A stretch of 64,000 nt of DNA from an archaeon (GTDB lineage: Archaea > Nanobdellota > Nanobdellia > Pacearchaeales > GW2011-AR1): the NCBI GenBank assembly GCA_018653485.1, contig JABHZE010000006.1, positions 262,937-326,936 of the forward strand, written 5' to 3'. The translations under genes and the position numbers were made by a program. Below the pieces are notes generated by a model. It did not search any database, was not told where the DNA came from, and was given only the letters and a program-made list of their open reading frames with translations. Below, in pieces: positions 8,148 to 53,042 of this stretch. Position 1 is the first letter of the stretch; the number at the start of each line of letters is the position of its first letter.

Positions 8148-8148
8148 T

Positions 8149-8397
8149 TTAGTTGTAAATATTTTTTCTATGTCCAACTTCAATTACAAATATTTGAAGT
8201 TCTTTATTTTTGATATTTAGAATTATTCTATATTCTCCTATTCTTCCTCTAAAATATGGTGAACCTATTAATCTTTTAACATAATTATAGGGTCTTATAC
8301 GAATTCTATCCAAGTAAGATGAAACTCTGTTTTGTATTTCTATTGGAAGTTTATCAAATTGTTTTGAGGCGTTTTGAGAGAATTCTATTTTATACAT
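8149..8397 (-). CDS. relE: RelE/ParE-family type II toxin
   Basis: MYKIEFSQNASKQFDKLP...RPYNYVKRLIGSPYFRGRIGEYRIILNIKNKELQIFVIEVGHRKNIY matches the RelE consensus (yRlRiGdYRiiy...v.vghRk.iY). Start chosen at the ATG at 8397; the ORF track extends to 8433. Confidence 0.8.
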   Translation of the reverse strand: MYKIEFSQNASKQFDKLPIEIQNRVSSYLDRIRIRPYNYVKRLIGSPYFRGRIGEYRIILNIKNKELQIFVIEVGHRKNIYN

Positions 8398-8404
8398 TTT
8401 ATTA

Positions 8405-8623
8405 TCAATGAAGTCTATTTTTAATTTCTTCAAAAGATATTGTTTTTCCTTCTTTAATTTCTTTTTCAGAAATTTTTATATTTTGTTTTGTTTCATCAGA
8501 TAATTCCATTCTATCTTCGATTAAATCCCAGATGAGCTCCTCATAACTTTCTTTTTCATGAATCTTCATGTTTCTCATTTTTTCAATTAATTTATCACTT
8601 ACTTGAATTGTTGTTTGTGCCAT
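8405..8623 (-). CDS. antitoxin partner of RelE (archaeal RelB-like)
   Basis: 72-aa acidic protein ending 7 nt upstream of the RelE ATG. N-terminus TTIQVSDKLIEKMRNMK...ESYEELIWDLIE is typical of small archaeal antitoxins. Confidence 0.6.
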   Translation of the reverse strand: MAQTTIQVSDKLIEKMRNMKIHEKESYEELIWDLIEDRMELSDETKQNIKISEKEIKEGKTISFEEIKNRLH

Positions 8624-8719
8624 AGTGATTATATAAGTTACTATATTTATATAAATGTTTTGGTTATGATAATATTTAGTTAGTTTTTTAAGTATTGATT
8701 TATAGATTAGGATATTTGT

Positions 8720-8793
8720 GCCGCAATAGCTTCAGTTGGTAGAGCGCTACATTGGTAATGTAGAGGTCCTGAGTTCGATCCTCAGTTGCGGCT
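8720..8793 (+). tRNA. tRNA-Thr(GGU)
   Basis: Acceptor gccgcaa/ttgcggc, D-arm gctt..gagc, anticodon stem ctaca/tgtag with loop ttGGTaa, T-arm ctgag-ttcgatc-ctcag, discriminator t. No encoded CCA. Confidence 0.9.
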
Positions 8794-8835
8794 TTGCAAA
8801 TAACCAAGTGATTGTTTAAATTATATAATCTATTT

Positions 8836-36917: not shown

Positions 36918-37169
36918 ATGAAAGGATCACCTAAAGTGTTTAGATTGCAAATAAATGTTCGTCCTTCATTACTTGAAGTTGTGGATGAAGTTGTTTCTGA
37001 AACAGGGGGTGCAACTAGAGCAGAATTTGTAAGAGATGCTATGGATTTATTAATTAATCATGTTAGAAGAACAAAAGAAGGTTATAAGTGTGTTTATGAA
37101 AAAGAAGATAATCCTGAAGAGAGGATTGAAGTTGTTCTTCCAGGTTATTCTCATTTAAACAGGGAGTAG
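36918..37169 (+). CDS. ribbon-helix-helix (CopG/Arc-like) DNA-binding protein
   Basis: FRLQINVRPSLLEVVDEVVSETGGATRAEFVRDAMDLLINHV shows a beta-strand then two helices typical of RHH regulators. First gene of the signalling island. Confidence 0.55.
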   Translation: MKGSPKVFRLQINVRPSLLEVVDEVVSETGGATRAEFVRDAMDLLINHVRRTKEGYKCVYEKEDNPEERIEVVLPGYSHLNRE

Positions 37170-37170
37170 T

Positions 37171-37204
37171 TTAGTTTGGAAACCTTAGAAAAGGTTTAAA
37201 AAAT
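37171..37204 (+). promoter_or_regulatory. repeated promoter/operator box, copy 1
   Basis: ttagtttggaaaccttagaaaaggtttaaaaaat. The first 21 nt are identical to 37458-37478. It contains the inverted repeat aaacctt-agaa-aaggttt and a gtttaaaaa TATA-like element 22-31 nt upstream of the ATG at 37224. Confidence 0.55.
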
Positions 37205-37223
37205 ATTAATTCTTAGATTAAAT

Positions 37224-37418
37224 ATGGAAAAGAAATCAAATACAAAAGGAAATCAAACAAGAGGGAAGATTATGGTTTTTGTTGGGTTTATTATGATTTT
37301 ATTTAATGCATTAAATTATATCTTGGCTTGGGAGAGGGATTTAGTAGTTCTGGGGATTCTTGGTTTGGTTTTTGTTGGGGTTGGTTTAAGGATGGCTCGA
37401 GGAAAGAGTAAGTTTTAA
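37224..37418 (+). CDS. small 2-TM membrane protein
   Basis: 64-aa ORF with helices IMVFVGFIMILFNALNYILA and VVLGILGLVFVGVGL. Confidence 0.45.
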   Translation: MEKKSNTKGNQTRGKIMVFVGFIMILFNALNYILAWERDLVVLGILGLVFVGVGLRMARGKSKF

Positions 37419-37530: not shown

Positions 37531-37884
37531 ATGGCAAAGAAAAAAGTTTTAATTGTTGATGATGATAAAAATGATTTAGAAACTATGAAAATGGTTCTTG
37601 AGAAAGATGGTTGTCAGGTAATTAGTGTTGAAAATGGTGCTGATGCTTTGGATGAACTAGAGGATGATGGTTATGATTTGATAATAATTGATATAAAAAT
37701 GCCTACATTATCTGGTTATGATTTGTTAAGATTAATGAGACAGAGGGTTAATCATAAAATAAAAATGATTTATGTTTCAATTGTTCCTGAACAAGAAGTT
37801 GATATGAATGATATTGAGGGCTTTATTCAAAAGCCGTTTTCTCCTGAAGAGTTTTTGAAAAAAGTTAAGGAAATTATTGGTTAG
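37531..37884 (+). CDS. stand-alone response-regulator receiver (CheY-like)
   Basis: VLIVDDDKND (acidic pocket), DLIIIDIKMPTLSG (phospho-acceptor Asp) and FIQKPF (conserved Lys). No output domain. Confidence 0.9.
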   Translation: MAKKKVLIVDDDKNDLETMKMVLEKDGCQVISVENGADALDELEDDGYDLIIIDIKMPTLSGYDLLRLMRQRVNHKIKMIYVSIVPEQEVDMNDIEGFIQKPFSPEEFLKKVKEIIG

Positions 37885-37980
37885 GAGAATTATATTTTAT
37901 GGGGGAGATTGGGAGAGTTTTATTTTTGGGAGAGTTTTATGAAAGAGAGAATTTAAATATACTTGATTATTTGTTTTATT

Positions 37981-38403
37981 ATGAATTTAATACCTCAATT
38001 AAAAAAAGAGCATGTAGAAATTATGCATTCGTTTGAATCAATTAAAGAAGGAGTTTCTAGTGGTAAATCAGGTGATGCTGATTTGATTGGTGAATTAAGA
38101 GAGTTAAAAAGAATTTTAGTTGCTCATTTAGATTTGGAAGATAAAATGTTGTATCCTGCTCTGTTGAATTCAGATGATAAAAAAGCAAAGGATTTAGGGA
38201 AAAAGTTTTCTGAAGAAATGTTAGGGATTTCAAAAGTGGCTTTGGCTTTTTTTGGAAAATATATGAGTGAAAGTATTTCTGATTTAATGAAGAGTTCTGA
38301 ATTTAGAAAAGAATTAGATGATGTTATTAAGGCTGTTACAAAAAGAGTTGATGCAGAGGAGAATATTCTTTATTTAGCATATGAGGAATGTTGTGAGAAG
38401 TGA
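37981..38403 (+). CDS. hemerythrin HHE cation-binding domain protein
   Basis: LKKEHVEIMHSFE...LKRILVAHLDLEDKMLYPAL... shows the H/E spacing typical of HHE-type hemerythrin-like domains. ATG at 37981 is preferred to the TTG at 37963. Confidence 0.65.
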   Translation: MNLIPQLKKEHVEIMHSFESIKEGVSSGKSGDADLIGELRELKRILVAHLDLEDKMLYPALLNSDDKKAKDLGKKFSEEMLGISKVALAFFGKYMSESISDLMKSSEFRKELDDVIKAVTKRVDAEENILYLAYEECCEK

Positions 38404-38504
38404 TTGTTGAGGGATTATTTGAGATAATAAATTGAATGATAATTTGTTGTGAATAAATTTATAAATGGTAAATGATTAAGGTTTGTATAAAAAGGTGAAA
38501 TATA

Positions 38505-38858
38505 ATGAGTAAAACAATTATGGTTGTGGATGATGAAGGAGATATTAGAGAGACTGTTAAGACTGTTTTAGAAAAAGAAGGTTATTCTGTTATAACTGCT
38601 ATAAGTGGAGATGATGCTTTGAAAAAATGGACTAAGCAGAAACCTGATTTAATTCTTATGGATATTATGATGCCTGGAACTCCTGTTAAGGATATTATTC
38701 CTAAGATGACTGGAACTAAGGTTGCTTATCTTTCTGTTGTTAGAACTTCTGAGGCTGAAAAAGAGGATTTAATGAAGAGTAAGAATATTGTGGATTTTAT
38801 ACAGAAGCCTTTTGATATAAAAGAATTGGTTAAAAAAGTTAAAAAATTGGTGGGTTAA
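38505..38858 (+). CDS. stand-alone response-regulator receiver (CheY-like)
   Basis: IMVVDDEGD, DLILMDIMMPG and FIQKPF. No output domain. The stop is 1 nt before the next start. Confidence 0.9.
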   Translation: MSKTIMVVDDEGDIRETVKTVLEKEGYSVITAISGDDALKKWTKQKPDLILMDIMMPGTPVKDIIPKMTGTKVAYLSVVRTSEAEKEDLMKSKNIVDFIQKPFDIKELVKKVKKLVG

Positions 38859-38859
38859 G

Positions 38860-39462
38860 ATGATAGATATGAAATCATCGCTTTCTTCAAATCAAATATT
38901 ACTTTTAGTTATGCCTAGTGCAGAATATAATGAGGTTCTTGTTGATGCAATGAAACAATTGTCAGGGAATATTTGCTATGTTACTTCAAATAAAACTTTT
39001 GATTCTTTAAAAGAAACTTTTAAAAAAAGTAAGGTGAATATTGATAATGTAGTTTTTATTGATTCTATTTCAAAGACTTTGAAGAAAACTCCTGACCAGG
39101 CAGATAGTGTTTATTATGTTTCTTCTCCTGGAGCATTGACTGAATTGTCTTTAGTTATTAATAAATTTTTAAGGCATGAATTTGATTATTTGATTTTTGA
39201 TTCTGTTACTAATCTTGCTGTATATCAAAAAAAGAATATGACTTCTAAGTTTATTTCTAGTTTGGCTGATAAAATTAAGAAGACTAAAACAAAAGCTATT
39301 TTTTATGCTTTGGATAGTGTTGAGCAAGCTTGGGTAATTGATCATGCTGGAATGGTTGTGGATAAGGTGATTAAGAGTGGTGGGGTGGATGGTGTTAAGG
39401 GGGAAGGGAAAGTTATTAAGAAGAGACTAAGTAAAAAAAAGAAAGAGGAGAAGGAGGTGTAA
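38860..39462 (+). CDS. KaiC/RecA-fold-like protein lacking a Walker A P-loop (paralog of 48703-49221)
   Basis: By eye it aligns with the KaiC domain of 47059-48690. QILLLVMPSAEYNEV occupies the P-loop position, GNICYVTSNK matches KKCLYMSFEE, and a Walker-B-like YLIFDSVTNL matches FIALDSLTAI. No GxxxxGK[ST] anywhere. Confidence 0.6.
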   Translation: MIDMKSSLSSNQILLLVMPSAEYNEVLVDAMKQLSGNICYVTSNKTFDSLKETFKKSKVNIDNVVFIDSISKTLKKTPDQADSVYYVSSPGALTELSLVINKFLRHEFDYLIFDSVTNLAVYQKKNMTSKFISSLADKIKKTKTKAIFYALDSVEQAWVIDHAGMVVDKVIKSGGVDGVKGEGKVIKKRLSKKKKEEKEV

Positions 39463-39463
39463 A

Positions 39464-39811
39464 ATGGCAGTAGGTCCAATGACTTTTGAAGGAGATTTGT
39501 TATTGATGGTAGCTATTGTTTTAGGATTAATTGCAACAGTTATAACTTTTTTAAATAGTCGGAAATTAAAAGGAGATGTTTTTGAAAAACCTTTTGTTTA
39601 TCTTTCAGTAGGTATTTTTTTAGCAACTTTTTCTTTAATCGCTGTAACTTTTTTTCAAGGAGTTTTTAGTGAATTAACTGTTGGTTTAATTCATGATATT
39701 AGTTTTATTCTGGGGTTAGGTTTAATGTTTTTAGCCTCTATACAGATTACAAAATTTTTAAAAGGATTAGGAAGTTTTGAACAAAAGTTACCTAAGAAGA
39801 TTAAGAAATAA
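39464..39811 (+). CDS. small 3-TM membrane protein, island family member 1
   Basis: 115 aa. TM1 is followed by FLNSRKLKGDVFEK, then two more TMs and a Lys tail. Same length and layout as 43723-44070. The start is 1 nt after the previous stop, with aaggaggt upstream. Confidence 0.55.
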   Translation: MAVGPMTFEGDLLLMVAIVLGLIATVITFLNSRKLKGDVFEKPFVYLSVGIFLATFSLIAVTFFQGVFSELTVGLIHDISFILGLGLMFLASIQITKFLKGLGSFEQKLPKKIKK

Positions 39812-39834
39812 TTTTGTTAGGGATTTTATTTTTT

Positions 39835-39860
39835 GGAGCTTTGCTCCTTTTTTATTTTTA
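39835..39860 (+). terminator. hairpin plus oligo-T terminator candidate
   Basis: ggagc-tttg-ctcc followed by ttttttattttta. Confidence 0.5.
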
Positions 39861-39945
39861 TTTTGTTGATTGATTTGTTTTTGAAATGCGAAGATATAAA
39901 TAATCAGGATTGTTATTTATAATGTGATTAAAAGGAGTAATTAAA

Positions 39946-40323
39946 ATGAAATTTGAAATGTTTTTTGCGTTTAGTATGTTTTTGTTAGGGGTAGGAGGGT
40001 TTTTCTTAGCTAGTTCTGTTTTGACAATGACTGGATTGTCGATAGCAGAGGTTGATGGGGGTGGTTCTTCGTCATCATTATTGTTGTTTATAGGTATAGG
40101 AGTAATTATTGCAGGTATTTTTGGAGTTATGATTGCAAAGAAATTTTATAAACATGATGGAGTGGATAAAAAAAGTATTAAGGGTAAGAAAGTTGGTGGT
40201 AAGGGTGGGAGAAAGGATAATAAGGTTGATAAGAAAAAGGATGAGAAGAAGGATGAGAAGAAAAAAAAGATGAAGGATAAAAAGAAGGATGATGTGAATA
40301 GTGGTAAGAAAGATAAGAAATAA
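39946..40323 (+). CDS. 2-TM membrane protein with long poly-Lys/Asp tail
   Basis: 125 aa with two hydrophobic helices, then KGKKVGGKGGRKDNKVDKKKDEKKDEKKKKMKDKKKDD. Confidence 0.5.
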   Translation: MKFEMFFAFSMFLLGVGGFFLASSVLTMTGLSIAEVDGGGSSSSLLLFIGIGVIIAGIFGVMIAKKFYKHDGVDKKSIKGKKVGGKGGRKDNKVDKKKDEKKDEKKKKMKDKKKDDVNSGKKDKK

Positions 40324-40413
40324 GGAAGCGAGAATATAAAAAGGTTTTTTTCTAATTAGATTATATAATAAATCTGTTTATTTAATAATGGATTTATATA
40401 ATAAAAAGGTTAA

Positions 40414-43400
40414 TTGAAAAAGAGGTTAATTGAAAAAGTGGTAAAACAATTGGGATTAAAGAAATTTATATTTGTAAGTGTGTTTTTGAGTTTGTTTTTA
40501 ATAAATGTTAATTTAGTATTTGCTCAAGAATCTTTGAATAAAGATTTTTTATCTCAAAAAGTATTAACTGAACTTAATTTTATTGAAGATGATTTAATAT
40601 TTTTAAAGGAGTTGCCTGATTTTAATGCTTTTATTAATGGAGATTTATCTCGTAAAGAGCATTTACAGGATACTTTTTTTAGTTTTTCAAAAAATAAACA
40701 GATTTATTATCAAGTAAGATATATTGATGAGAGTGGAAAGGAAATTATTAGGGTAGATAATATTGAAGGAGAGACTGAGATTATCTCTGAAGATAATCTT
40801 CAGAATAAAAAAGGAAGATATTATTTTGATGATGCTTTTCTTTTAGATGATGGAGATATTTTTGTTTCACCTTTGGATTTAAATATTGAACAAGGTAAAT
40901 TAGAAAATAGGGGGAGTGAAGGAAACCCTGTTTATGTTCCTGTTATAAGATATGCTACTCCTGTTTTTGATTCAGAAAAGAAAAAAGTAGGGATAATTAT
41001 TCTTAATGTTTATGCAGATTATATTTTGGATATTTTTAAGAAAAATGGTGCAGGGTTGTCTGAAGATAGGGGATATCTTGTAAATAAGGAGGGTTATTTT
41101 TTATTTCATTCTGATTCTTCAAAAGAATTTGGTTTTATGTTTGAGAATGATATTACTTTAAGAAATGAATTTGGAGGAGAGTTTAGTCGAGTTTTTGATA
41201 GTGATGAGGGTGAATTTAATTTTAATGGAAAAACTTATGATTATATTAAAATTTTTCCTTCTGATTTGGAAATAATTTCAAGTAGTGGTTCTCCTAAGAG
41301 TTATGCCCCTAGTCTATCTAAGGTTCAGGGTAAAGATTATTTTTGGATTTTAATTGTTGAATCTCCTATTGTTAAGGGTGTTGTTGATTTCATGGCTCCT
41401 GTTTTTTTAGGTATTTATATTTTTTTAGGTATTCTTATTTTTTTAGGGATTTATTTTATTTTCTTTAAGAAAAAGAAAGAAAAAGAAAAAGAGAAAGAAA
41501 AAGATATTAGTGGCTTTTTCTTTAGTAAATTAAATAGGAAGATTATTTTAGGATTTTTAATTGTTGCATTATTGTTTGGAGTTATTGCGGGAGCAGGTAG
41601 TTTTTATTTGGAAAAAGCAGCTAAATCTGATTATATTAATGCTATTAATGAGATTGAAGCAGATTTTAATGATTTTAGGGAAGGAGATATAAGGACTTTA
41701 TCGGTAGGTTTGGAAATTGCTGTTCAGGATAAGGATTTGAAGGAAGTTTATTTAGAAAAGGATAGGGATAAACTTTATAATTATGGGCAAAATTTATTCA
41801 ATGAATTAAAGGATAAGTATGCTGTTACTCATTTTTATTTTATTGAACCTGATGGGAATTGTTTTGTTAGGTTGCATAATAAGGATAAGTTTAATGATGA
41901 AATTAAAAGGGCTACTTTTTTAAAGTCTAAAGAGACAAAAGATATTGGAGCTGGAATTGAATTAGGAAAAACTGCGTTTGCATTAAGAGTTGTTAAGCCT
42001 TATTATAATGATAATGAATTAATTGGTTATATGGAATTAGGTGAAGAAATAGATCATTTTTTAGAAGAGATGAAGAAAGGTAAAAATAATGAATTTTCAA
42101 TTATTATTGATAAGGAGTTTATAGATGAAGAAAATTGGGCTTCTGTTAGGGAGGTTAAAGGATTAGAGAATAATTGGGATAAGTTAGAGAATCATGTTGC
42201 TATTGAATCTACTATTGAAAATAATGTGCATTGTTTTAATTCTGATAATGTTGTAAAGGTTTTAGATGGAGAAAGGGTTTTTGGGACTTTTGATTCTGAA
42301 AAAGGAGATTTTGTATGTGGTGGTTTTCCTTTAATTGATGCTTCTGGAAATGAAGTTGGAGCTATGTTTGCATTGATTGATTCTTCTAAGAAGATTGGTT
42401 TTATAACTGCTATAAAATATGGTTTATTGTTTATGGTTGTTCTTTTTATTTTGGCAATTATTATTCTTAGTTTTTTTATTAAATTAAAAATTATAAATCC
42501 TATTGCTAAATTGAATAATGCAACTTCTGAGATTCAAAAAAGAAATTTTAAAGCAAGGGTTGATATTAATACAGGAGATGAATTACAGGTTTTAGGAGAA
42601 TCTTTTAATAAAACTGCAAAAGTTTTGCAACATATGGATGAAGAACATAAGCAATTGGAAAAAGCTAAGACTGAATTTTTGAGTATTACTTCGCATGAAT
42701 TAAGAAGTCCGATGACTCCAATGCAAGCTCAGTTGCAAATGTTACTTGGAGAGTATTATGGAAAATTAAATCCTAAACAAAAAAATTCATTAGATATTGT
42801 TGCAAGAAATACGAAAAGATTGGATAATATTATTGTTGATTTTTTGGAGATTTCTCGTATAGAGGCTGCGAGATTAAAGTTTAGATTTGTTAAAAAAGAT
42901 TTGACTGGTTCTATTAAAAGGTTAATGAAAGAGATGGTTGGTTTTATGCCTGAGAAGAAAGTTAAGTTATATAGTAAGATTGGTAAATTGCCTGTGATTG
43001 AAGTTGATCCAGATAGAGTTATGCAGGTTTTGAGAAATTTGATTAATAATGCTATTAAGTTTTCTCCTGAAGGAAAGAAAGTTGTTGTTTCTGCAGGATT
43101 AAAAGGAAATATGATTGAGTTTTCTGTTAAAGATGAAGGTATTGGTATTAAGGCAGAAGATCAGAAGAGAATTTTTGAACCATTTTTTCAAGCAGAACAG
43201 ACTATGTATAGGGAGCATCAAGGGACTGGATTAGGATTAGCAATTATTAGAGGAATTGTTGAGTCTCAAGAAGGGAATGTTTGGTTAGAGTCTGAAGAGG
43301 GTAAGGGAACAACTTTCTTTTTTACTATTCCTTTGAAACCTGTTAGGAATGTTAAGGCAATTAAATTATTGTTTTCTGAATCTAAAAATATTGAAAAAGA

Positions 43401-43722
43401 AATTAAGAAAGTTTTCTTAGATGTTTTGGGGCCTATGGGGAGTCAAGAGTTTGAAAATTTAGAGAAAAGAAATCAATTAGATAAAAAGAATTTAATTTGG
43501 TATTCGGATTTTTTAATTAAGAAAGGTATTTTGAGTGAAGAGAAGGGGAAGTTATTTAAAGATAAATTGTTATTTATATTAGGTGAGAAAAAAAGAGGTA
43601 TTGGGACTAACGAATTAGTTAAGAAGGGGTTGATTTCATCTCCTAAGAAAAAATTGGTTGCAGAGGATATATTAAAGAAAGAGTCTAAATTAAATATCAA
43701 TAAAAAAGAAGTAAGAAAATAA
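40414..43722 (+). CDS. sensor histidine kinase with two extracytoplasmic sensor domains, HAMP, HisKA, HATPase_c and a C-terminal extension
   Basis: 1102 aa. Layout is TM, a ~290-aa Cache-like domain, TM, KKKKEKEKEKEKD loop, TM, a second ~300-aa sensor domain (THFYFIEPDGNCFVRLHNKDKFNDEI...GYMELGEEIDH), TM, then HAMP. H-box FLSITSHELRSPMTP, N-box NLINNAIKFSP, G-boxes DEGIGI and GTGLGLAI. The TTG start is uncertain. Confidence 0.9.
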   Translation: MKKRLIEKVVKQLGLKKFIFVSVFLSLFLINVNLVFAQESLNKDFLSQKVLTELNFIEDDLIFLKELPDFNAFINGDLSRKEHLQDTFFSFSKNKQIYYQVRYIDESGKEIIRVDNIEGETEIISEDNLQNKKGRYYFDDAFLLDDGDIFVSPLDLNIEQGKLENRGSEGNPVYVPVIRYATPVFDSEKKKVGIIILNVYADYILDIFKKNGAGLSEDRGYLVNKEGYFLFHSDSSKEFGFMFENDITLRNEFGGEFSRVFDSDEGEFNFNGKTYDYIKIFPSDLEIISSSGSPKSYAPSLSKVQGKDYFWILIVESPIVKGVVDFMAPVFLGIYIFLGILIFLGIYFIFFKKKKEKEKEKEKDISGFFFSKLNRKIILGFLIVALLFGVIAGAGSFYLEKAAKSDYINAINEIEADFNDFREGDIRTLSVGLEIAVQDKDLKEVYLEKDRDKLYNYGQNLFNELKDKYAVTHFYFIEPDGNCFVRLHNKDKFNDEIKRATFLKSKETKDIGAGIELGKTAFALRVVKPYYNDNELIGYMELGEEIDHFLEEMKKGKNNEFSIIIDKEFIDEENWASVREVKGLENNWDKLENHVAIESTIENNVHCFNSDNVVKVLDGERVFGTFDSEKGDFVCGGFPLIDASGNEVGAMFALIDSSKKIGFITAIKYGLLFMVVLFILAIIILSFFIKLKIINPIAKLNNATSEIQKRNFKARVDINTGDELQVLGESFNKTAKVLQHMDEEHKQLEKAKTEFLSITSHELRSPMTPMQAQLQMLLGEYYGKLNPKQKNSLDIVARNTKRLDNIIVDFLEISRIEAARLKFRFVKKDLTGSIKRLMKEMVGFMPEKKVKLYSKIGKLPVIEVDPDRVMQVLRNLINNAIKFSPEGKKVVVSAGLKGNMIEFSVKDEGIGIKAEDQKRIFEPFFQAEQTMYREHQGTGLGLAIIRGIVESQEGNVWLESEEGKGTTFFFTIPLKPVRNVKAIKLLFSESKNIEKEIKKVFLDVLGPMGSQEFENLEKRNQLDKKNLIWYSDFLIKKGILSEEKGKLFKDKLLFILGEKKRGIGTNELVKKGLISSPKKKLVAEDILKKESKLNINKKEVRK

Positions 43723-44070
43723 ATGGTTAATATAATAACAATAAATTGGATAATTGGAGGAGTTGCAGGAATTTTAATGTTCTATGCTTCTTTTATTACA
43801 TTTATGGCTGCAAAAAAAATGACAGGAGAATTAAAGAAATCTATTTTATTATTACTTGGCGCTTTATTATTTTATTTATTTATGGGATTTGGAATAGGAA
43901 TAATGGCTGTTAAAGATATTCATTATAGTGAGAGAGTTTGGTTGATTATTTCAACTTTTTCTTTAATAGGGGGAATTTTATTTGTAGTCGGTGCTAGAAA
44001 ATTGTTTAAGGTTTTGTTAAATGTTTCTGAAAATGATAAAAAGATAAATAAAAAGGAGGTTAAAAAATGA
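43723..44070 (+). CDS. small 3-TM membrane protein, island family member 2
   Basis: 115 aa. The start is immediately adjacent to the HK stop. TM1 is followed by FMAAKKMTGELKKS, then two more TMs and a Lys tail. Confidence 0.55.
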   Translation: MVNIITINWIIGGVAGILMFYASFITFMAAKKMTGELKKSILLLLGALLFYLFMGFGIGIMAVKDIHYSERVWLIISTFSLIGGILFVVGARKLFKVLLNVSENDKKINKKEVKK

Positions 44071-44492
44071 AGAAAAATATTTTGGTGTTAGTAATGTTAG
44101 GATTAATGTTTGCTATGCCTTTTATTAGTGCTGCTACAGAACATAGTGATAATAGTATTGGAATTGCTTCTCACTGGATATCTATGGTATTAATTGTTGT
44201 TGTAATTGTTTTTGCTTTTATGGCTGCGGGAATGTTTGCTGAAGGTTTAGGAAAGGCAATGAAATTAATTGGAGTCGGAATGGCTTTTCTTGGTATAAAT
44301 AGTGTTATGGAAGAATTTGCCCATATGGAGTTTCTTATTATTCCAGAAGGAGTTTTACACTCTTTGACATATCATGGTTTAGTGGCTGTTGCTTATATTT
44401 TCCTTGCATATGGATTTTATAGGGTTTACAAAGTAGCTAAAGGTGTTTCAGGAAATTCTGTTGGTAAATCTGTTCAAAAGGGGGCTAAGTAA
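44067..44492 (+). CDS. small membrane protein (signal peptide + 3 TM), island family member 3
   Basis: ATGA overlap with the previous gene. FMAAGMFAEGLGKAMKL mirrors the post-TM1 motif of 43723-44070. Confidence 0.55.
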   Translation: MKKNILVLVMLGLMFAMPFISAATEHSDNSIGIASHWISMVLIVVVIVFAFMAAGMFAEGLGKAMKLIGVGMAFLGINSVMEEFAHMEFLIIPEGVLHSLTYHGLVAVAYIFLAYGFYRVYKVAKGVSGNSVGKSVQKGAK

Positions 44493-44508
44493 TTAATTAC
44501 TAAATAAA

Positions 44509-44685
44509 ATGAAAGAGAAAATTGTAACAATTGGAACTTTGCTAGAGAAGGGTTTAATTAAAGAAAGTACTAAAATTAGAATTAGTATTGAAAATCTAAA
44601 AGAGATTGATTTGATTAAACCTCTTGATAAGAAAAAAGTTGTTAAGATAACTGAGCTTGATGAAATGGGGTTGATAAAAAAATAA
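44509..44685 (+). CDS. candidate 58-aa protein with SHOCT-like G-L-I-K motifs
   Basis: Below the ORF-track cutoff. Encodes MKEKIVTIGTLLEKGLIKESTKIRISIENLKEIDLIKPLDKKKVVKITELDEMGLIKK. The same (E/K)KG(L/I)(I/L) motif occurs twice in the HK C-terminal extension. Confidence 0.35.
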   Translation: MKEKIVTIGTLLEKGLIKESTKIRISIENLKEIDLIKPLDKKKVVKITELDEMGLIKK

Positions 44686-44744
44686 TTTAAAATGAAAATT
44701 AAAAAATTTTCAAATTCTCATTTAAGGAGGTTAAATTTCGGAAA

Positions 44745-46409
44745 ATGAAAATAGCATTTATCTTAATTATCTCATTTGTAATTGTAGCAGTACTTGGTAG
44801 TATTGGTGGAAGTTATTATTTTTATTTGGAATCTGGAGATTTATTAGAGCATCAGGTTATAAATCATTTAGATTCTGTTGCACAAGGAATGGAAAACTCT
44901 ATTAATGGTTTTTTAGAAGAGCAAATTGATAAGTTGAATATCGTTGCAACACATGGAGAACTTTCAGTTGAAGAATTAATTGAGATAAGGGATTTGCAGG
45001 ATGAATTTTATGAGGTTTTTGTTTTAGATTCTAAGGGGATTATTATTGCAAGTTCGGATGTTTCAAAAATTGGTTTAGATAGGGCTGAGGATGATTATTT
45101 TATTGGAGGAATAAAAGGAGATCATATTAAAACAGCTTATTTTTCAGATATAACTTTTATAGAATCAATTGCGGTTTCTACTCCTTATAATGGAGGAGTT
45201 TTAGTTGCAAGAATTGAATTAGAAGCATTTAATAAATTAATTTCGGATAGGACTGGATTAGGTGAAACAGGAGAGAGTTTATTAGGTTATAAGGGTGATG
45301 ATGGAGAAGCTGTTTTTTTTACTGAGTTGAAATTTGAGGTAGGTCCTGATGGACATGAAGCAGAACATGTAACCTTACCTATAGAGGAAGCATTAGATGG
45401 GAAGGAAGAAATATTTTTTGAATATGATTATCGTCATGTGCCTGTAATTGCTGCAACAAGATATATTGAGGATGTAGATATGGGGCTTGTTACTAAAATT
45501 GATGAAGCAGAGGCATTAGGTATTGCTAGGAATAGATTATTTAGAACTTCTTTGATTGTGATAATTATAATTACTTTGATTATTACTTTAGTTGGTTTTT
45601 TTGTTTCGCGTTTAATTTCAAAACCTATTAAGAAATTAACACAAGATGTTGACGAAATAACAAAAGGTAAATTAGATCTTCAATTAGGTAAGAGTAATCT
45701 TTTTGAAATTCAAGGATTAGTTAATTCATTGAATCGGATTTTAGCTTCATTAAAGCTGGCTATTTTGAAAACAGGTTCTGCAAAGGGATCGTTAGGTTTA
45801 GGGGAGGTTGTTAAGGCTAAACAAGAGGCTGAAGAGAAATATAAGATTCTTTATGAAACTTCACAGGATGCAATTATGATATTAGAGCCTCCTAAATGGA
45901 ATTTTACTGCGGGAAATCCTGCAACTGTTAAAATGTTTGGTGCTAAGGATGAGAAAGATTTTATTTCCTATGGTCCTGGAAAATTATCTCCTAAAAATCA
46001 GTTGAATGGGAAATTATCTTCTGAAGAAGCTAAGAAAATGATTGGTATTGCTATGAAAAAAGGAAGTTATTCTTTTTATTGGACTCATAAAAAAATTAAT
46101 GGTAAAAGTTTTTATGCAAGTGTTTTGTTAACTAAGATGAAATTAAATGGTAAAGATGTTTTACAAGCAACTGTTCGGGATTTATCAGGGAAGAAAGGAG
46201 AGGGGGAGAAACAAGTTCTTGCCAAGAAATCTGAAGGTAAGGTTGTTAATAAATTGGTTAAGAGTGTTAAGAAAGATATGGTTAGTGGAAATAAAAAAAA
46301 TAAAGAAGAGGTGAAGAAAAAAAATATTAAAAAGGAATTAGTTCCTCCAAGTCCTGTTTCTAAGTCTGTTATTAAAAAAAATGTTGATAAGGAAGAGGTG
46401 AAAAAATAA
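44745..46409 (+). CDS. membrane sensor: Cache-like domain + HAMP + PAS, no recognisable output domain
   Basis: 554 aa. Layout is TM, a ~250-aa extracytoplasmic domain, TM, HAMP (ISKPIKKLTQDVDEITKGKLDLQL...LVNSLNRILASLK), then PAS (YKILYETSQDAIMILEP...LQATVRDLSGKK). It ends in a Lys-rich tail with no HisKA, HATPase, GGDEF or MCP signalling domain. Confidence 0.8.
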   Translation: MKIAFILIISFVIVAVLGSIGGSYYFYLESGDLLEHQVINHLDSVAQGMENSINGFLEEQIDKLNIVATHGELSVEELIEIRDLQDEFYEVFVLDSKGIIIASSDVSKIGLDRAEDDYFIGGIKGDHIKTAYFSDITFIESIAVSTPYNGGVLVARIELEAFNKLISDRTGLGETGESLLGYKGDDGEAVFFTELKFEVGPDGHEAEHVTLPIEEALDGKEEIFFEYDYRHVPVIAATRYIEDVDMGLVTKIDEAEALGIARNRLFRTSLIVIIIITLIITLVGFFVSRLISKPIKKLTQDVDEITKGKLDLQLGKSNLFEIQGLVNSLNRILASLKLAILKTGSAKGSLGLGEVVKAKQEAEEKYKILYETSQDAIMILEPPKWNFTAGNPATVKMFGAKDEKDFISYGPGKLSPKNQLNGKLSSEEAKKMIGIAMKKGSYSFYWTHKKINGKSFYASVLLTKMKLNGKDVLQATVRDLSGKKGEGEKQVLAKKSEGKVVNKLVKSVKKDMVSGNKKNKEEVKKKNIKKELVPPSPVSKSVIKKNVDKEEVKK

Positions 46410-46810
46410 TGGTATTTATGGAATGGAGTGATGAATTAAGTGTCAAAGTTAAAGAAATTGATGAACAACATAAAGAGTTGATTGAGATTATCAATCAAGC
46501 TCATAAGATTAATATGGGAGAGGATAAGAAAAAAGGAAATGAGATTTTAAATAAATTAATTGAATTTACTCGAGTGCATTTTACTACTGAAGAAAAATAC
46601 TTTAAAAAATGTAAATATCCTAAGAGTGAAGAACATATTGTAGAACATGTTGAATTAATTGAAAAAGTTTTGAAATTTAAAAGAGATTATGAAATTGGGA
46701 AGTGTAATTGTGAAGAGTTTTTAGGGTTTCTTAAGGATTGGTTGGAAAATCATTTGAAAGTTATGGATATGAAGTATGTTGATAATTTTCAAAAATGTGG
46801 GTTGAAGTAA
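46409..46810 (+). CDS. bacteriohemerythrin-like protein
   Basis: MEWSDELSVKVKEIDEQHKELIEIIN...HFTTEEKYF...EEHIVEH...WLENHLKVMDMKY contains all the His/Glu/Asp di-iron ligand positions. Its ATG overlaps the upstream stop (TAATG). Confidence 0.85.
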   Translation: MVFMEWSDELSVKVKEIDEQHKELIEIINQAHKINMGEDKKKGNEILNKLIEFTRVHFTTEEKYFKKCKYPKSEEHIVEHVELIEKVLKFKRDYEIGKCNCEEFLGFLKDWLENHLKVMDMKYVDNFQKCGLK

Positions 46811-46895
46811 TGTTTTGATTTGGGTTTTTGATAAGACATGTTTGAGAAGGGAGTTAGTTAAAAAATAGGTTCGCTATGCTCACACTTATTTTATG

Positions 46896-46927
46896 GAAAA
46901 TTGAATGACTTTGTTAATTCAATTTTC
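46896..46927 (+). promoter_or_regulatory. perfect 11-bp inverted repeat between the hemerythrin and hemerythrin-KaiC genes
   Basis: gaaaattgaat-N10-attcaattttc. It could be a terminator hairpin or an operator. Confidence 0.4.
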
Positions 46928-47058
46928 TAATTCTTCTAATAAATCTATAAATTTTTTATTTAAGTTATAGAGAAAGAATTGTTATTATTGGGTAGAGCTG
47001 TATTTTGTTTTTTTGTGAGGCATAAGATAGATTTAAATAATATTTTTTTCTTATTTTA

Positions 47059-48690
47059 ATGGGTGATGATTATATGGTTAGAAAAAAGAAAGTGAAAAGA
47101 AAAAAGAGTGTAGAAAAGAAGAAGGATACTAAGAAGGAGAAGGCTGAGAAGAAGAAGGTTGAGGAGAAGGCTGAGAAGAAGGTTGAGAGGAAGGCTGAGA
47201 AGGAGAAAGTGGATAAGAGAAAAAAGAATGTGAAGAAAAAGAAGAATTCTAAGGAAAAGGTTGAGAGGGTTGGAAAAGTTGATGAAGTAAGAAAAGTTGA
47301 AAATAATTCTAAGAAAAAAGATTCTAAAGAAATAGTTAGTTGGAGTTCTGCATTAAGTGTTGGTGAGAAAACAATTGATAGTCAACATAAGAAATTGATT
47401 GGGCAGATTGAAGAGTTAGAAAAGAATTTGAAGGAAGATAATTCTCTGCCTGGAGTTAGGAAGTGTATTCATTTTTTAGATAGTTATGTTAAGGAACATT
47501 TTACCTATGAAGAAGCTTATATGAAAAAAAATAAATATTCGGGTTTAGAAGAACATAAGAGAATTCATAATGAATTTATTAAATTTTATGAGGAGTTTAA
47601 AAAAGAATTAACTCTAAAGCTGACTAAGGTTGTAGATGCAAAATCTTTTGCAAAAGAACATGTGAAAAAGGTTCACGAGTTTTTAGGTAATTGGATTATT
47701 GAACATATTAAAGGAGAGGATAAGAAATATTGTGAAGAGATTAACCCTAAAAAATGTGGTAAATTGGATAAAGAGGTTATTAAAAATAAAGATGTTGCTG
47801 AAAAGCCAATAAAAGAAAAGAAAAAAGGTAAAATAGATGTTTCTGAGATTGCTAAAGAAATTAAGGAAGAACAAATTAAAGAACAGAGAGAACCTGTTAG
47901 TGACTTGGCTAATGAGGGGAAGGATAAGAAAATAAAAAAAGGTTCTGGAAGATATGTTGTTACTGGTGTGCCTGGGTTTGATGATTTATTAGAACAAGGA
48001 ATTCCTAAAGGAAATGCTCTTTTAATTGCATGTGGTGCTGGAAGTGGAAAGACTATTTTTAGTTTGCAATCTCTTGTGCATCAGGCTAAAAAGGGTAAGA
48101 AATGTTTGTATATGAGTTTTGAAGAAAGAGAGAGTAGGTTGATTTCTCATATGGAAGATTTTGGATGGAATCCTAAAGAGTTAATTGAGAAAGGAAATTT
48201 AAAAATTATGAGGATAAATCCTTTTGATATTACGAGAAATGTTGATGCCTTATTGGCTAAACAAAAGGGAGAATTATTAATTGAGATAGACCCTGTGATT
48301 ATTCCTAAGGATTTTAAGCCTGATTTTATTGCTCTTGATAGTTTAACTGCTATTGCTAGTGCTTTTACTGGGAAAGAAGAAAATTATAGAATTTATATTG
48401 AACAATTATTTAGATTTTTTGAAAAAATTGGGGCTACAAGTTTTTTGATTACAGAGACTGAACAAATACCTAAGATATTTAGTAAGACTGGTGTTGAAGA
48501 GTTTTTAGCAGATGGTGTAATTGTGTTTTATAATTTAAAGCATGGAAATGTTAGAGAGAATGCTATTGAGATTTTGAAACTAAGAGGGGCTGCACATCAG
48601 AAAAAAATTGTTGCAATGCAGATTACTGGTAAGGGAATAATGGTTTATCCTGAACAGGAAGTTTTTTCAGAGATTTCTGAGAGTGGGTGA
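47059..48690 (+). CDS. Lys-rich repeat + bacteriohemerythrin domain + KaiC-like (RecA-superfamily) ATPase fusion protein
   Basis: 543 aa. About 90 aa of KKKVEEKAEKK-type repeats come first. Then hemerythrin (WSSALSVGEKTIDSQHKKLI...EHFTYEEAYM...EEHKRIHNEF...WIIEHIKGEDKKY). Then KaiC-like GVPGFDDLLEQGIPKGNALLIACGAGSGKT (Walker A), FIALDSLTAI (Walker B) and ILKLRGAAH. Confidence 0.85.
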   Translation: MGDDYMVRKKKVKRKKSVEKKKDTKKEKAEKKKVEEKAEKKVERKAEKEKVDKRKKNVKKKKNSKEKVERVGKVDEVRKVENNSKKKDSKEIVSWSSALSVGEKTIDSQHKKLIGQIEELEKNLKEDNSLPGVRKCIHFLDSYVKEHFTYEEAYMKKNKYSGLEEHKRIHNEFIKFYEEFKKELTLKLTKVVDAKSFAKEHVKKVHEFLGNWIIEHIKGEDKKYCEEINPKKCGKLDKEVIKNKDVAEKPIKEKKKGKIDVSEIAKEIKEEQIKEQREPVSDLANEGKDKKIKKGSGRYVVTGVPGFDDLLEQGIPKGNALLIACGAGSGKTIFSLQSLVHQAKKGKKCLYMSFEERESRLISHMEDFGWNPKELIEKGNLKIMRINPFDITRNVDALLAKQKGELLIEIDPVIIPKDFKPDFIALDSLTAIASAFTGKEENYRIYIEQLFRFFEKIGATSFLITETEQIPKIFSKTGVEEFLADGVIVFYNLKHGNVRENAIEILKLRGAAHQKKIVAMQITGKGIMVYPEQEVFSEISESG

Positions 48691-48702
48691 TAGGGGGTTA
48701 AA

Positions 48703-49221
48703 ATGAAACATAAACTTGTATTTTTATTAGGGCATGAGGGTTATCTTAAAGAAATAAGAGAAATTATTAAAAAAAAGGGAAGTAAGATTTGTTATATAAC
48801 TTTGAATAAGAGTTGTGAGTATTTGAATGGGAAATTAAATGTTAGTAATTTTGATGAGGATAAATTTTATTTTATTGATGGTGTTTCTCCTATAATTAAA
48901 AAGCCTGGAGATGTTGGAAATTGTGATTTTGTCAAAATGTCTGATGGTTTTACTAAATTAATCGGTTATGTTAAAAAGGGTTTGAAAAATGGGGCAAATG
49001 TAGTTGTTTTAGATTCTGTATCTAATGTTTTGACATATCATTCTTCTACAAAAGGAACTTGTTCTTTTATAGATAGACTTTCAAAACTTGTTGAAAAACA
49101 TAATGCTACTTTAGTTGTTTTTTGTAATAAGAATGATGAAGAGAGAATTGCTAATGGGGTTTGCATTTCTAATTTTAAGGTTTATAAGAAACCTTTTGAG
49201 TTATTGGGGCATAGGGAATAA
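48703..49221 (+). CDS. KaiC/RecA-fold-like protein lacking a Walker A P-loop (paralog of 38860-39462)
   Basis: LVFLLGHEGYLKE sits at the P-loop position, KICYITLNK follows, and NVVVLDSVSNVL is Walker-B-like. Starts 12 nt after the hemerythrin-KaiC gene, with a gggggt SD-like motif. Confidence 0.6.
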   Translation: MKHKLVFLLGHEGYLKEIREIIKKKGSKICYITLNKSCEYLNGKLNVSNFDEDKFYFIDGVSPIIKKPGDVGNCDFVKMSDGFTKLIGYVKKGLKNGANVVVLDSVSNVLTYHSSTKGTCSFIDRLSKLVEKHNATLVVFCNKNDEERIANGVCISNFKVYKKPFELLGHRE

Positions 49222-50276: not shown

Positions 50277-50519
50277 TTAATTGCTTGGATACTGCCCCTG
50301 TTTGCAGATATTACAACAATTCTGATTATTACTATTAGATTTATTAATATCATTTACAAATTCTTTTTCGCAACTACTACCCAACATTTCTTCAACAACC
50401 TCTTTTTCAACATCTTCATAGCCTACAAAATTTATACCGCAAATTCTACATTTTAACATTTTTAATTCTGAAAAAGTTATGTCTGAAACTTCGCCAAATT
50501 CAACAACTAAATCTTTCAT
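50277..50519 (-). CDS. small zinc-ribbon protein coupled to the integrase
   Basis: 80 aa with CRICG...CCNIC. Its start overlaps the integrase stop (ATGA). Confidence 0.5.
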   Translation of the reverse strand: MKDLVVEFGEVSDITFSELKMLKCRICGINFVGYEDVEKEVVEEMLGSSCEKEFVNDINKSNSNNQNCCNICKQGQYPSN

Positions 50520-51562
50520 TTTACAATCTCCATTTCTTTACTATAATCTTTTCTAATAAAATTGTCTTGAAGATTTAATAATACATCTTTATAATTATCA
50601 TTCATTAATGCGATTTCTTTTTTAAGATTTTCAATTTCTAATTCCATTTTGTTTTTTTCTGGTTCGGTTAATTCTTGAGTTGGAAAAAAATCTTTTAACA
50701 TACTTTCTTCAACATCATCGTCATCTAAATTATTATAAAATTGGGATGCCTTAGAATTATGCCCGGCGAATTTACAACTTAATTTTTCAGGCAAAGTTTT
50801 CTGAATATCGTATAATCGTGTATGCCGTAGTAAGTAAGGGAATATGTGCCTTATTTTAGCCTTTTCTGAAAGCCTTTTAAACATTTGAGTTATTACTCCG
50901 TCCCCCATAGGTTTTTCTTTATCGTGTTGAGAAGGGAAAACATAATCGTTATAGCCCCTATTCGCAAAACTATATTCATCTTTCCATCTCTTTAAATGAA
51001 GAATGCAATCTCTTACCGGAATATATCTTTCTTTTTGAGTTTTAGGCGAAACAATATGAATTCTACAAATATTTTTATTTTCATCAAAATTCAAGTCTTT
51101 CCATTTCAATATTCTAATTTCGCAAGGACGCAAAGCCCCTTCATACATTAAAGAAATTAAGGCTTTCCATTTTAGGTTATTCGCAATTCTAATCAAAGCT
51201 TCAAGTTCTTCGGGTTTTAGTAAGGTATTTTTATTTATTTTATCTTTATTTCTTAGTAAATCATCTGAAACAAGTCTAAAAGCTTCTTTAAGCCTCAAAT
51301 CTTCTAAATCTATTTTATTTTTATATTGTATTTTTAAAAATCTTTTAAAGATTTTCTTAGTGTCATTTTTAGTATGCAAAGAATAATCAGAATTATTTAG
51401 GTAGGCTAAATATTTTATAATGTCTGTAATAGTTAATTTTGTTAAATCTTTTTTTAGAAACTTCTTAATATTCTTTAAAGTGTTCTTAATTTTATAAATT
51501 CTTCTTTCTCCGCAAGTCGTAGAGCAGAACTCGTAAAATTCATTAAGCTGTTTTTTTTCCAT
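50516..51562 (-). CDS. tyrosine recombinase/integrase (XerC/D-phage integrase family)
   Basis: 348 aa. N-terminal SAM-like domain, then the catalytic pattern LMYEGALRPCEI (Arg), HIFPYLLRHTRLYD (His-x-x-Arg) and AGHNSKASQFY (His...Tyr). The gene faces the 3' end of tRNA-Glu 58 nt away. Confidence 0.85.
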   Translation of the reverse strand: MEKKQLNEFYEFCSTTCGERRIYKIKNTLKNIKKFLKKDLTKLTITDIIKYLAYLNNSDYSLHTKNDTKKIFKRFLKIQYKNKIDLEDLRLKEAFRLVSDDLLRNKDKINKNTLLKPEELEALIRIANNLKWKALISLMYEGALRPCEIRILKWKDLNFDENKNICRIHIVSPKTQKERYIPVRDCILHLKRWKDEYSFANRGYNDYVFPSQHDKEKPMGDGVITQMFKRLSEKAKIRHIFPYLLRHTRLYDIQKTLPEKLSCKFAGHNSKASQFYNNLDDDDVEESMLKDFFPTQELTEPEKNKMELEIENLKKEIALMNDNYKDVLLNLQDNFIRKDYSKEMEIVK

Positions 51563-51619: not shown

Positions 51620-51692
51620 TGCCCCGACCGGGATTCGAACCCGGGTCACGGCCTTGAAAGGGCCGGATGCTTGGCCGCTGCACTATCGGGGC
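51620..51692 (-). tRNA. tRNA-Glu(UUC)
   Basis: Reverse complement gccccga-ta-gtgc-agcggccaa-gcat-c-cggcc-ctTTCaa-ggccg-tgac-ccggg-ttcgaat-cccgg-tcggggc-a. Confidence 0.9.
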
Positions 51693-52967: not shown

Positions 52968-53042
52968 GAGCCTATAGCTCAGTCAGGTCAGAGCACTGCT
53001 CTTATAAGGCAGGGGTCCCAAGTTCAAATCTTGGTAGGCTCA
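52968..53042 (+). tRNA. tRNA-Ile(UAU)
   Basis: gagccta-ta-gctc-agtcaggtca-gagc-a-ctgct-ctTATaa-ggcag-gggtc-ccaag-ttcaaat-cttgg-taggctc-a. All four stems pair, with one G-U. Confidence 0.85.

Follow-up and report, generated by a model that had tools for sequence, protein, structure and literature searches.

What does a di-iron hemerythrin do when it is built into the same polypeptide as a KaiC-type ATPase? This question is raised by a gene on the archaeal contig JABHZE010000006.1 (GenBank assembly GCA_018653485.1; Pacearchaeales, GW2011-AR1), of which we analysed a stretch of 64,000 nucleotides (positions 262,937 to 326,936; hereafter the window). A sequence-only reading of the window had described an open reading frame (ORF) in which a Lys-repeat N-terminus is followed by a hemerythrin and a KaiC-like domain, and had suggested ligand-gated ATPase activity or autophosphorylation as its mode of signalling. 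We found that this is a genuine single gene joining a di-iron hemerythrin to a KaiC-type ATPase, as about 70 protein clusters share the architecture, and that it belongs to a widespread archaeal signalling gene cluster in tiny-genome DPANN archaea. The fusion protein belongs to a family, spread across DPANN, of KaiC proteins with a single, CI-like domain, and we consider it fairly likely that it provides an archaeal KaiC-like signalling hub with an O2/redox (di-iron) input. We are much more confident of the architecture and the family context than of the direction of the regulation and the ligand.

The first domain of the fusion is a bacteriohemerythrin. It matched the Pfam Hemerythrin family (PF01814) over residues 104-224 (E 8e-13; 49.4 bits vs a cut-off of 25.3) and passed the cut-offs of two bacteriohemerythrin models, NCBIfam NF033749 (94.5 bits, cut-off 84) and TIGR02481 (101.7 bits, cut-off 51.75). 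When the residues were indexed, all seven di-iron ligands were present: H110, H147 and E151 (HxxxE), H166 and H170 (HxxxH), and H216 and D221 (HxxxxD). The complete ligand set claimed by the sequence-only reading is therefore confirmed. Across 47 aligned fusions, H110, H147 and E151 were invariant, and H170, H216 and D221 were at least 90% conserved; H166 was replaced by glutamine in a few (e.g. P0070 and P0077). The AlphaFold2 (AF2) model places the four hemerythrin helices at residues 104-125, 129-157, 163-190 and 194-228, with a predicted local distance difference test score (pLDDT) of about 85-96. The closest solved relative of the domain is DcrH-Hr (E 7e-11, phmmer against the PDB), and the fused hemerythrin is 35% identical to the stand-alone one encoded upstream in the window. 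It is predicted to bind iron.

The second domain is KaiC. Pfam KaiC (PF06745) matched residues 301-533 (E 1.9e-50; 171.8 bits vs a cut-off of 26.6); with such E values for both hemerythrin and KaiC, a chance match is excluded. Both Pfam and AF2 found one KaiC domain, not a tandem of CI and CII. Motif indexing confirmed the intact Walker motifs that the sequence-only reading had pointed out, Walker A (GAGSGKT) at residues 326-332 and Walker B (FIALDS) at residues 423-428, which includes D427. The domain also contains the catalytic Glu pair (E355/E356) and the KLRG motif (K507/R509), in which R509 is the Arg finger. GAGSGKT, E355/E356, D427 and R509 were invariant in an alignment of 47 relatives. 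The top phmmer match in the PDB was KaiC, with 117 bits for CI and 62 bits for CII, and Foldseek comparison with the CI-domain crystal structures 4tl7 and 4tlb gave target-normalised TM scores of 0.82-0.84. The positions of the KaiC residues S431 and T432 are occupied by E480 and E481, within a GVEEF stretch as in CI, and this Glu pair was likewise invariant in the 47 relatives.

The protein scored far below the cut-offs of several more specialized models. This was true of the circadian KaiC models (TIGR02655, 108.4 vs 546.25 bits; NF006799, 134.4 vs 408 bits), the ArlH/FlaH models (NF052589, 41.4 vs 215 bits; NF004723, 46.8 vs 194 bits), KaiC_arch_3 (TIGR03880, 123.2 vs 249.45 bits), and RadA/Sms and RadB (24.3 vs 403 bits and 16.1 vs 278 bits). 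There were no archaellum (arl) genes among the window ORFs scanned. We found no Pfam match to KaiA or KaiB among the scanned flanking genes, a scan that left aside both receiver-only genes, the gene at 39464-39811 and the short ORFs at 36918-37418. Judged by its sequence, the KaiC part of the fusion is a single CI-like KaiC-type ATPase with intact catalytic motifs, not a clock KaiC, and the canonical autokinase sites are absent from it.

Lys-rich segments precede and separate the two domains, much as the sequence-only reading had drawn them. Its Lys-repeat N-terminus of about 90 residues corresponds to residues 1-92 (36 K, 6 R, 14 E and 6 D), where imperfect 12/24-nucleotide tandem repeats at 47135-47207 encode the Lys-rich sequence (Tandem Repeats Finder score 104). 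Its Lys-rich linker corresponds to the Lys/Glu-rich residues 230-299, and its domain boundaries, 47335-47745 and about 47950, to residues 93-229 and residue 298 onward. The structure prediction that it had recommended gave two folded domains on a mostly disordered tether: the mean pLDDT was 76.5 for the whole protein and about 90 within both folded domains, and the predicted template modelling score (pTM) was 0.49. The Lys-rich N-terminus is modelled as a long helix at residues 4-62 and as disordered beyond, and the linker as disordered at residues 239-260 and as a low-confidence helix at residues 261-284. The linker contains the segment KIDVSEIAKEIKEEQIKEQREP, which is conserved throughout the family; its consensus, KIDVSEIAKEIKxEQIxxQRxP, stands ahead of the KaiC domain in all N-terminal variants described below.

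A K-rich tail begins nearly all family members. We therefore rejected the possibility that the Lys-rich N-terminus is a mechanical upstream extension, that is, a chance ORF over a purine-rich stretch. The N-terminus is translated, and doubt is confined to the first five residues. The start codon is probably ATG 47074 (MVRKKKVKRKK...), which would give a protein of 538 residues; we favour it because it matches the family-usual N-terminus MVKKKVKKK and has Shine-Dalgarno-like and TATA-like motifs upstream. The putative TATA box, TTTAAATA, lies 33 nucleotides from this ATG in the 248-nucleotide upstream spacer. No structured RNA was found in the spacer; Rfam detected only tRNAs in the window.

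To place the fusion in its family, we searched 5.8 billion clustered proteins (90%-identity clusters) for homologues. The clusters that hold both PF01814 and PF06745, about 70 in number, were 50-74% identical to the query over 82-97% of its length. They came from NCBI, JGI, ENA and Logan assemblies, mostly metagenome-assembled genomes (MAGs) of Woesearchaeota and Pacearchaeota. Among 118 scored relatives there were 66 clusters with a single hemerythrin (Hr), plus Hr-Hr, helix-turn-helix (HTH)-Hr and HHE variants. The sequence-only reading did not recognize the architecture as a characterized one. We found no paper that describes it, but it is not rare, and JGI has automatically annotated some of the fusions as 'KaiC/GvpD/RAD55 family RecA-like ATPase/hemerythrin-like domain-containing protein'.

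The KaiC core of the family is well conserved (65-90% identity), and what precedes it varies: a K-rich tail only, a putative HTH, one hemerythrin, two hemerythrins, an HTH plus hemerythrin(s), or an HHE-type hemerythrin-like domain. Pfam did not confirm the putative HTH of the paralogues, save for a weak MarR_2 match in P0095. Longer members of 600-820 residues carry other N-terminal regions; these are DUF5752-like in several proteins of 640-820 residues (P0149, P0160, P0163, P0159 and P0169), and P0165 (821 residues) has a long N-terminal region with no Pfam match. In P0146, a KaiC-like protein without a P-loop (iKaiC; DUF7504) is fused to KaiC, which amounts to a KaiC of two domains of which the first is dead. 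In species-representative genomes, one for each GTDB species, at least 382 family stretches were confirmed by tblastn. The titles of the 80 loci listed were mostly Woesearchaeota, Pacearchaeota, Nanoarchaeota/Nanoarchaeia, Aenigmatarchaeota and Micrarchaeota MAGs; a dozen were titled 'uncultured Methanosarcinales', and a few had other labels, probably from binning noise. When 1.84 billion representatives (50% identity) were searched exhaustively with HMMER, 232 proteins had E <= 1e-30, of which only a handful cover the hemerythrin part.

In an approximate KaiC-domain tree (neighbour-joining, no bootstrap), fused and unfused forms were interleaved. The window protein grouped with P0034, which has no sensor, and P0058, which has an HHE-type sensor. 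The KaiC domain of P0058 is 85% identical to that of the window protein, and its HHE domain is 46% identical to the stand-alone HHE protein of the window (37963-38403); this type of HHE domain is also fused to KaiC in P0112. The interleaving of the tree and the HHE likeness of P0058 suggest that the N-terminal position behaves as a socket for swappable modules. Some genomes have more than one type. HTH-KaiC and hemerythrin-KaiC paralogues lie side by side at L018:4576-7425, and in the MAG RS_8_59 the two types lie on different contigs (L011 and L058). Mixed rings of HTH-KaiC and hemerythrin-KaiC paralogues are conceivable.

The neighbouring genes point to signalling. In the window, the genes from 37531 to 49221 all lie on the plus strand, and the arrangement of the histidine kinase is syntenic in L001 and L006, where orthologues of the dCache-HAMP-PAS sensor also hold the same position. 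We examined the contigs of six homologues and then scanned 90 loci, 86 of them non-redundant, with our own small hidden Markov models (HMMs). An iKaiC gene lay within 6.5 kb of KaiC in at least 43 of the 86 loci. Receiver (REC) genes were near KaiC in at least 27 and Cache/PAS genes in at least 25, and REC-iKaiC gene pairs were frequent across loci. A separate Hr/HHE gene was near KaiC in at least 17 loci and directly upstream in 11. All these counts are minimum values, since contig edges cut many of the loci short. In L016 (P0034 with P0125), the closest relative, the order HHE, Cache/PAS, Hr, KaiC and iKaiC is that of the window, but the fused hemerythrin is absent.

The gene that follows the fusion in the window encodes an iKaiC, and a second paralogue follows one of the REC genes. 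The downstream iKaiC fell just below the PF06745 cut-off (26.4 vs 26.6 bits), with an alignment that starts at profile position 45. In an alignment of 22 iKaiC members there was no P-loop and the hhhhDS strand was kept. Pfam matched these homologues to DUF7504 (18 of 22), KaiC (14 of 22; best E 4e-10), DUF7090 (11 of 22) and DUF835 (9 of 22). The AF2 model of the downstream iKaiC had a pTM of 0.81, and its top Foldseek matches were PH0284 and KaiC CI (probability 1.00). Thus, both iKaiCs of the window lack the P-loop and, according to these models, keep the KaiC fold. DUF835 and MEDS are iKaiC output domains of archaeal response regulators, e.g. REC-DUF835 (Galperin et al., 2018, PMC5847659). 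Taken together, the iKaiC Pfam and fold data, the REC-DUF835 regulators and the P0146 fusion support a physical link from REC through iKaiC to KaiC. Protein searches with iKaiC alone and with the hemerythrin domain alone returned 3 and 2 proteins, respectively; the word-based prefilter is too insensitive for such short, fast-evolving queries.

Other loci showed further associations. A family of multi-pass membrane proteins of 112-115 residues with K-rich C-termini recurs directly beside hemerythrin-KaiC genes and is duplicated in the window; its sole member scanned with Pfam (43723-44070) had no match. In L004, a module of hemerythrin-KaiC, membrane protein and iKaiC lies downstream of cheA-cheW-cheC-cheC-cheD on the same strand (L004:2-3623 and 6001-8807), with three short ORFs and a divergent PAS gene in between. 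From this one locus, a link of the module to taxis is possible. Hemerythrin-containing proteins of about 700-780 residues are encoded upstream of HTH-KaiC genes at L030:584-2899, L033:2887-5226 and L034:1958-4072.

Based on these data, we propose a model for how the fusion protein may work. The bacteriohemerythrin would have been inserted between the Lys-rich tail of the family and the conserved helix that precedes KaiC. The KaiC domain, acting as a hexamer, would bind and slowly hydrolyse ATP, and the tethered di-iron domain would report O2 or redox state by switching between its diferrous and diferric forms, as DcrH, Bhr-DGC and Bhr-HD-GYP do. In one redox state the hemerythrin may dock on the ATPase ring, or release it, and this could alter ATPase turnover, the stability of the ring, or the binding and recruitment of iKaiC, REC and sensor proteins. 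Through the downstream iKaiC and the upstream REC-iKaiC pair, the hub would communicate with the histidine kinase encoded nearby. Separate subunits, namely the Cache-HAMP-PAS sensor that lacks an output domain and the Hr and HHE proteins that stand alone, may provide further input. With its flexible linker, and being absent, replaced by HHE or encoded separately in close relatives, the hemerythrin is a swappable input module within a larger system of several proteins, not one half of a fixed two-domain switch. Candidates for the output are protein partners and nucleic-acid binding, which could occur via the K-rich tail or, in paralogues, via the HTH.

Several of our results weigh against this model. 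The closest KaiC relatives, P0034 and P0056 (88% identity in the KaiC domain), have no fused sensor, so the hemerythrin is dispensable for the core function. AF2 showed no confident contact between hemerythrin and KaiC, and the linker of about 70 residues is mostly low-confidence or disordered; direct allostery is thus unproven. The neighbourhood counts rest on our own small HMMs, applied to loci that are often cut by contig ends. Last, hhalign paired iKaiC with KaiC in register, but the match was weak (a probability of 3%); the kinship of the two therefore rests on the Pfam matches and the predicted fold.

The model can be extended to the lineage as a whole, although we hold this extension only tentatively and would rather expect it to be wrong. 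According to it, a single, highly conserved CI-like KaiC hexamer would carry the main O2/redox response of Woesearchaeota- and Pacearchaeota-type DPANN archaea. Di-iron sensors (bacteriohemerythrin or HHE) and a DNA-binding HTH, fused or separate, would fit into its N-terminal socket, and iKaiC would couple the ring to two-component receivers. The output, through the tail or the HTH, would be an ATP-dependent change in DNA binding or transcription. If true, this would be a signalling logic without a studied counterpart.

We weighed other explanations of the fusion. In one that we regard as quite unlikely, the hemerythrin is not a sensor; it would scavenge O2, buffer iron or protect against peroxide beside an oxygen-sensitive complex, and the ATPase would work independently of its state. 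In anaerobes, a protective role against oxidative damage has been connected with single-domain hemerythrins (PMC4919030), and the three separate hemerythrin-superfamily units of the region (at 37963, at 46409 and in the fusion) could mean dosage, not signalling. The long, flexible linker would also suit such a role. However, all recurrent neighbours are signalling proteins (histidine kinase, REC, Cache/PAS and iKaiC), and the best solved relative of the hemerythrin is the sensory domain of DcrH. Moreover, two hemerythrin-type domains swap at an N-terminal position that is also held by a putative HTH, which is typical of input modules.

KaiC models far outscore those of RadA and RadB on this protein. 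This speaks against a second explanation to which we give a similarly small chance, a RadA/RadB-like, DNA-associated ATPase whose Lys-rich tail or HTH binds nucleic acid and whose hemerythrin links DNA repair, or regulation at the level of chromatin, to oxidative stress. The KaiC family does belong to the RecA superfamily, and weak, sub-threshold matches to RadA/Sms, RadB and RecA were found. The strong conservation of the core across DPANN, the charge of the N-terminal tail and the HTH-like N-terminal segment of many family members would all fit. Yet no repair genes recur in the neighbourhoods of the loci examined, Pfam recognized the HTH segment only weakly and only in P0095, and K-rich tails are also present on the membrane and sensor proteins of this same cluster.

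The autophosphorylation half of the sequence-only reading corresponds to a KaiC-style autokinase or timer, in which O2 would gate KaiC autophosphorylation and the phosphorylation state would carry the signal. There is a precedent in the single-domain KaiC-like ArlH, which autophosphorylates and thereby controls its oligomerization (PMC10983859), and the catalytic Glu pair and the Walker motifs of the fusion are intact. We nevertheless find this explanation improbable, even a little more so than the previous two: the domain is single and CI-like, it scores far under the circadian KaiC cut-offs, no KaiA or KaiB match was found among the flanking genes scanned, and E480/E481 replace the phosphorylation sites in every one of the 47 relatives. 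With a Glu pair at those positions, the evidence favours a regulated ATPase or hexamer switching over autokinase signalling of the KaiC type. A sensory role is still the best reading of the fusion, and autophosphorylation as its means has been weakened.

Finally, a frameshift that artificially joined two genes, which the sequence-only reading had raised and which the low-complexity, A-rich junction and the separate hemerythrin genes directly upstream of KaiC in several relatives might suggest, is virtually impossible, since many independent assemblies carry the same continuous fusion at 50-74% identity, the frame is open across the conserved linker motif in the alignment of 47 fusions, and the window has a separate upstream hemerythrin gene besides the fused one.

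How does an O2/redox input on a KaiC-like hub compare with known systems? KaiC-like ATPases have been proposed to be archaeal signalling hubs (Makarova, Galperin and Koonin, 2017, as cited in PMC5847659). As far as those hubs are described in the citing paper, the fusion resembles them in its single intact KaiC-like ATPase, fused or adjacent sensors, inactivated paralogue and two-component links; it differs in its hemerythrin input, in its DPANN lineage, and in having REC and iKaiC as separate adjacent genes and not as one fused protein. The best match in sequence and fold is the CI domain of cyanobacterial KaiC, which shares Walker A, the EE pair, Walker B, GVEEF and KLRG. Unlike cyanobacterial KaiC, the fusion protein has one domain, no CII, no S431/T432, and no KaiA or KaiB among the flanking genes scanned.

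For the sensor, the counterparts are DcrH (a methyl-accepting chemotaxis protein (MCP) of Desulfovibrio vulgaris), VcBhr-DGC and Bhr-HD-GYP, in which a bacteriohemerythrin with the full seven-residue di-iron site is also fused to a signalling output. In an anaerobe, DcrH provides a chemoreceptor with its O2 sensor (PMC13401364), and GGDEF and HD-GYP outputs fused to a hemerythrin domain are under the control of its redox/O2 state (PMC8846402). In contrast to these proteins, the output here is a KaiC-type ATPase and not an MCP, GGDEF or HD-GYP domain, and the hemerythrin is N-terminal, on a long and mostly disordered linker. The archaeal motility regulators ArlH/FlaH and CirA are also single-domain KaiC-like proteins, and they couple nucleotide or phosphorylation state to oligomerization and partner binding; in ArlH, the oligomeric state and the affinity for partners vary with both (PMC10983859). 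The solved PH0284 and PH0186 of Pyrococcus horikoshii have the single-domain archaeal KaiC-like fold (E 5e-24 and 5e-23). Unlike the fusion, ArlH/FlaH and CirA have no sensor domain, and PH0284 and PH0186 have neither an N-terminal sensor nor a Lys-rich tail.

Both elements have precedents: KaiC-like hubs are known to carry sensor domains, and hemerythrin is known to act as a fused sensor. The hemerythrin-KaiC combination, the DPANN-wide family and the swapping of modules appear to be undescribed. A full-text literature search for KaiC with hemerythrin returned unrelated papers only, although a mention in the tables of the 2017 hub paper is possible; searches for hemerythrin with Woesearchaeota and for DUF7504 returned nothing. 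A 2016 survey of 56 hemerythrin architectures included no DPANN genomes, and the word ATPase is absent from it.

The role of KaiC as a hub in archaea has been proposed mostly from genomics, and inputs are known for almost none of these hubs. With an input that is chemically defined and spectroscopically tractable, as a di-iron site would be, the hub hypothesis could be put to a direct test. Such an input is also relevant to O2 sensing in DPANN archaea, which are obligately anaerobic and host-dependent and have small two-component repertoires. In addition, the Hr-KaiC, HHE-KaiC and iKaiC-KaiC fusions predict which proteins of the cluster touch each other.

Table 1. Features of the fusion gene, of its neighbourhood in the window, and of a recurrent membrane-protein family.
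Feature	Coordinates	Strand	Size or residues	Basis and remarks
Receiver-only response regulator	37531..37884	+	117 aa	Translation, own HMM
HHE-type hemerythrin-like protein	37963..38403	+	146 aa	Pfam
Receiver-only response regulator	38505..38858	+	117 aa	Operon-like pair with iKaiC paralogue; own HMM
Second iKaiC paralogue, DUF7090	38860..39462	+	200 aa	Directly after REC gene; Pfam, alignment, own HMM
Two small membrane proteins	39464..40323	+	115 and 125 aa	Paralogous to the pair at 43723-44492
Sensor histidine kinase	40414..43722	+	1102 aa	Sensor domains, HAMP, HisKA, HATPase_c; Pfam
Two small membrane proteins	43723..44492	+	115 and 141 aa	Own HMM scan
Membrane sensor dCache-HAMP-PAS without output domain	44745..46409	+		K-rich C-terminal tail; Pfam
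Stand-alone bacteriohemerythrin	46409..46810	+	133 aa	NF033749, 124.7 bits; start overlaps stop of sensor gene
TATA-box-like element TTTAAATA (putative)	47033..47040	+		In 248-nt upstream spacer; read from sequence, predicted function
Hemerythrin-KaiC fusion gene	47059..48690	+	543 aa	ORF list, Pfam, NCBIfam, about 70 homologous fusion clusters
Lys-rich low-complexity N-terminus	47059..47334	+	aa 1-92	Net charge +22
Shine-Dalgarno-like motif GGTGAT	47062-47067	+		Precedes ATG 47074
Bacteriohemerythrin domain, four-helix bundle (predicted)	47335..47745	+	aa 93-229	NF033749, AF2
Lys/Glu-rich linker	47746..47955	+	aa 230-299	Alignments, position
Family-wide conserved linker segment KIDVSEIAKEIKEEQIKEQREP	47830-47895	+	aa 258-279	
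Single CI-like KaiC/RecA-superfamily ATPase domain	47956..48666	+	aa 300-536	Pfam, phmmer, Foldseek
iKaiC, KaiC-like without P-loop	48703..49221	+	172 aa	12 nt past fusion stop; SD-like motif GGGGGT upstream
Membrane family, members in the window	43723-44070; 39464-39811		112-115 aa (family)	
Membrane family, members at other loci	L004:7624-7962; L007:5655-5999; L009:5642-5980		112-115 aa (family)	

We tried two other roles for the gene cluster and rejected both. A role in a defence system found no support in PADLOC: neither the fusion nor the two iKaiCs nor the Cache sensor matched any of its models, and we read as spurious the one weak Cas9-model match (E 1.3e-4, 20 bits) of the stand-alone hemerythrin. 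The cluster as cargo of a mobile element was the other. A tyrosine integrase gene (50516-51562, minus strand) adjoins tRNA-Glu(TTC) (51620-51692, minus strand), a typical arrangement for an integration site. However, no att-like direct repeat of the tRNA-Glu was found in 30000-53500, and the cluster is syntenic with relatives that have no integrase.

Other features of the window concern its composition and content. Its GC content is 26-32%, and Lys and Glu make up 11.3% and 8.5% of ORF residues. GC skew is +0.3 to +0.6 over plus-strand genes, whereas over the minus-strand genes at about 8-20 kb it is close to zero or negative; this is a very strong purine bias of the coding strand. The 3' part of a tRNA, cut by the start of the window, lies at 1-60 (Rfam, 32.4 bits), and a tRNA-Ile with the anticodon TAT, an uncommon way to read AUA, lies at 52968-53042. 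A pair of surface-protein genes at 4319-7397 encodes an 825-residue beta-helix/NosD-like protein and then a 199-residue protein with dockerin type I repeats; the sequence of this pair hints at a cell-surface assembly of the cohesin-dockerin type in a DPANN archaeon.

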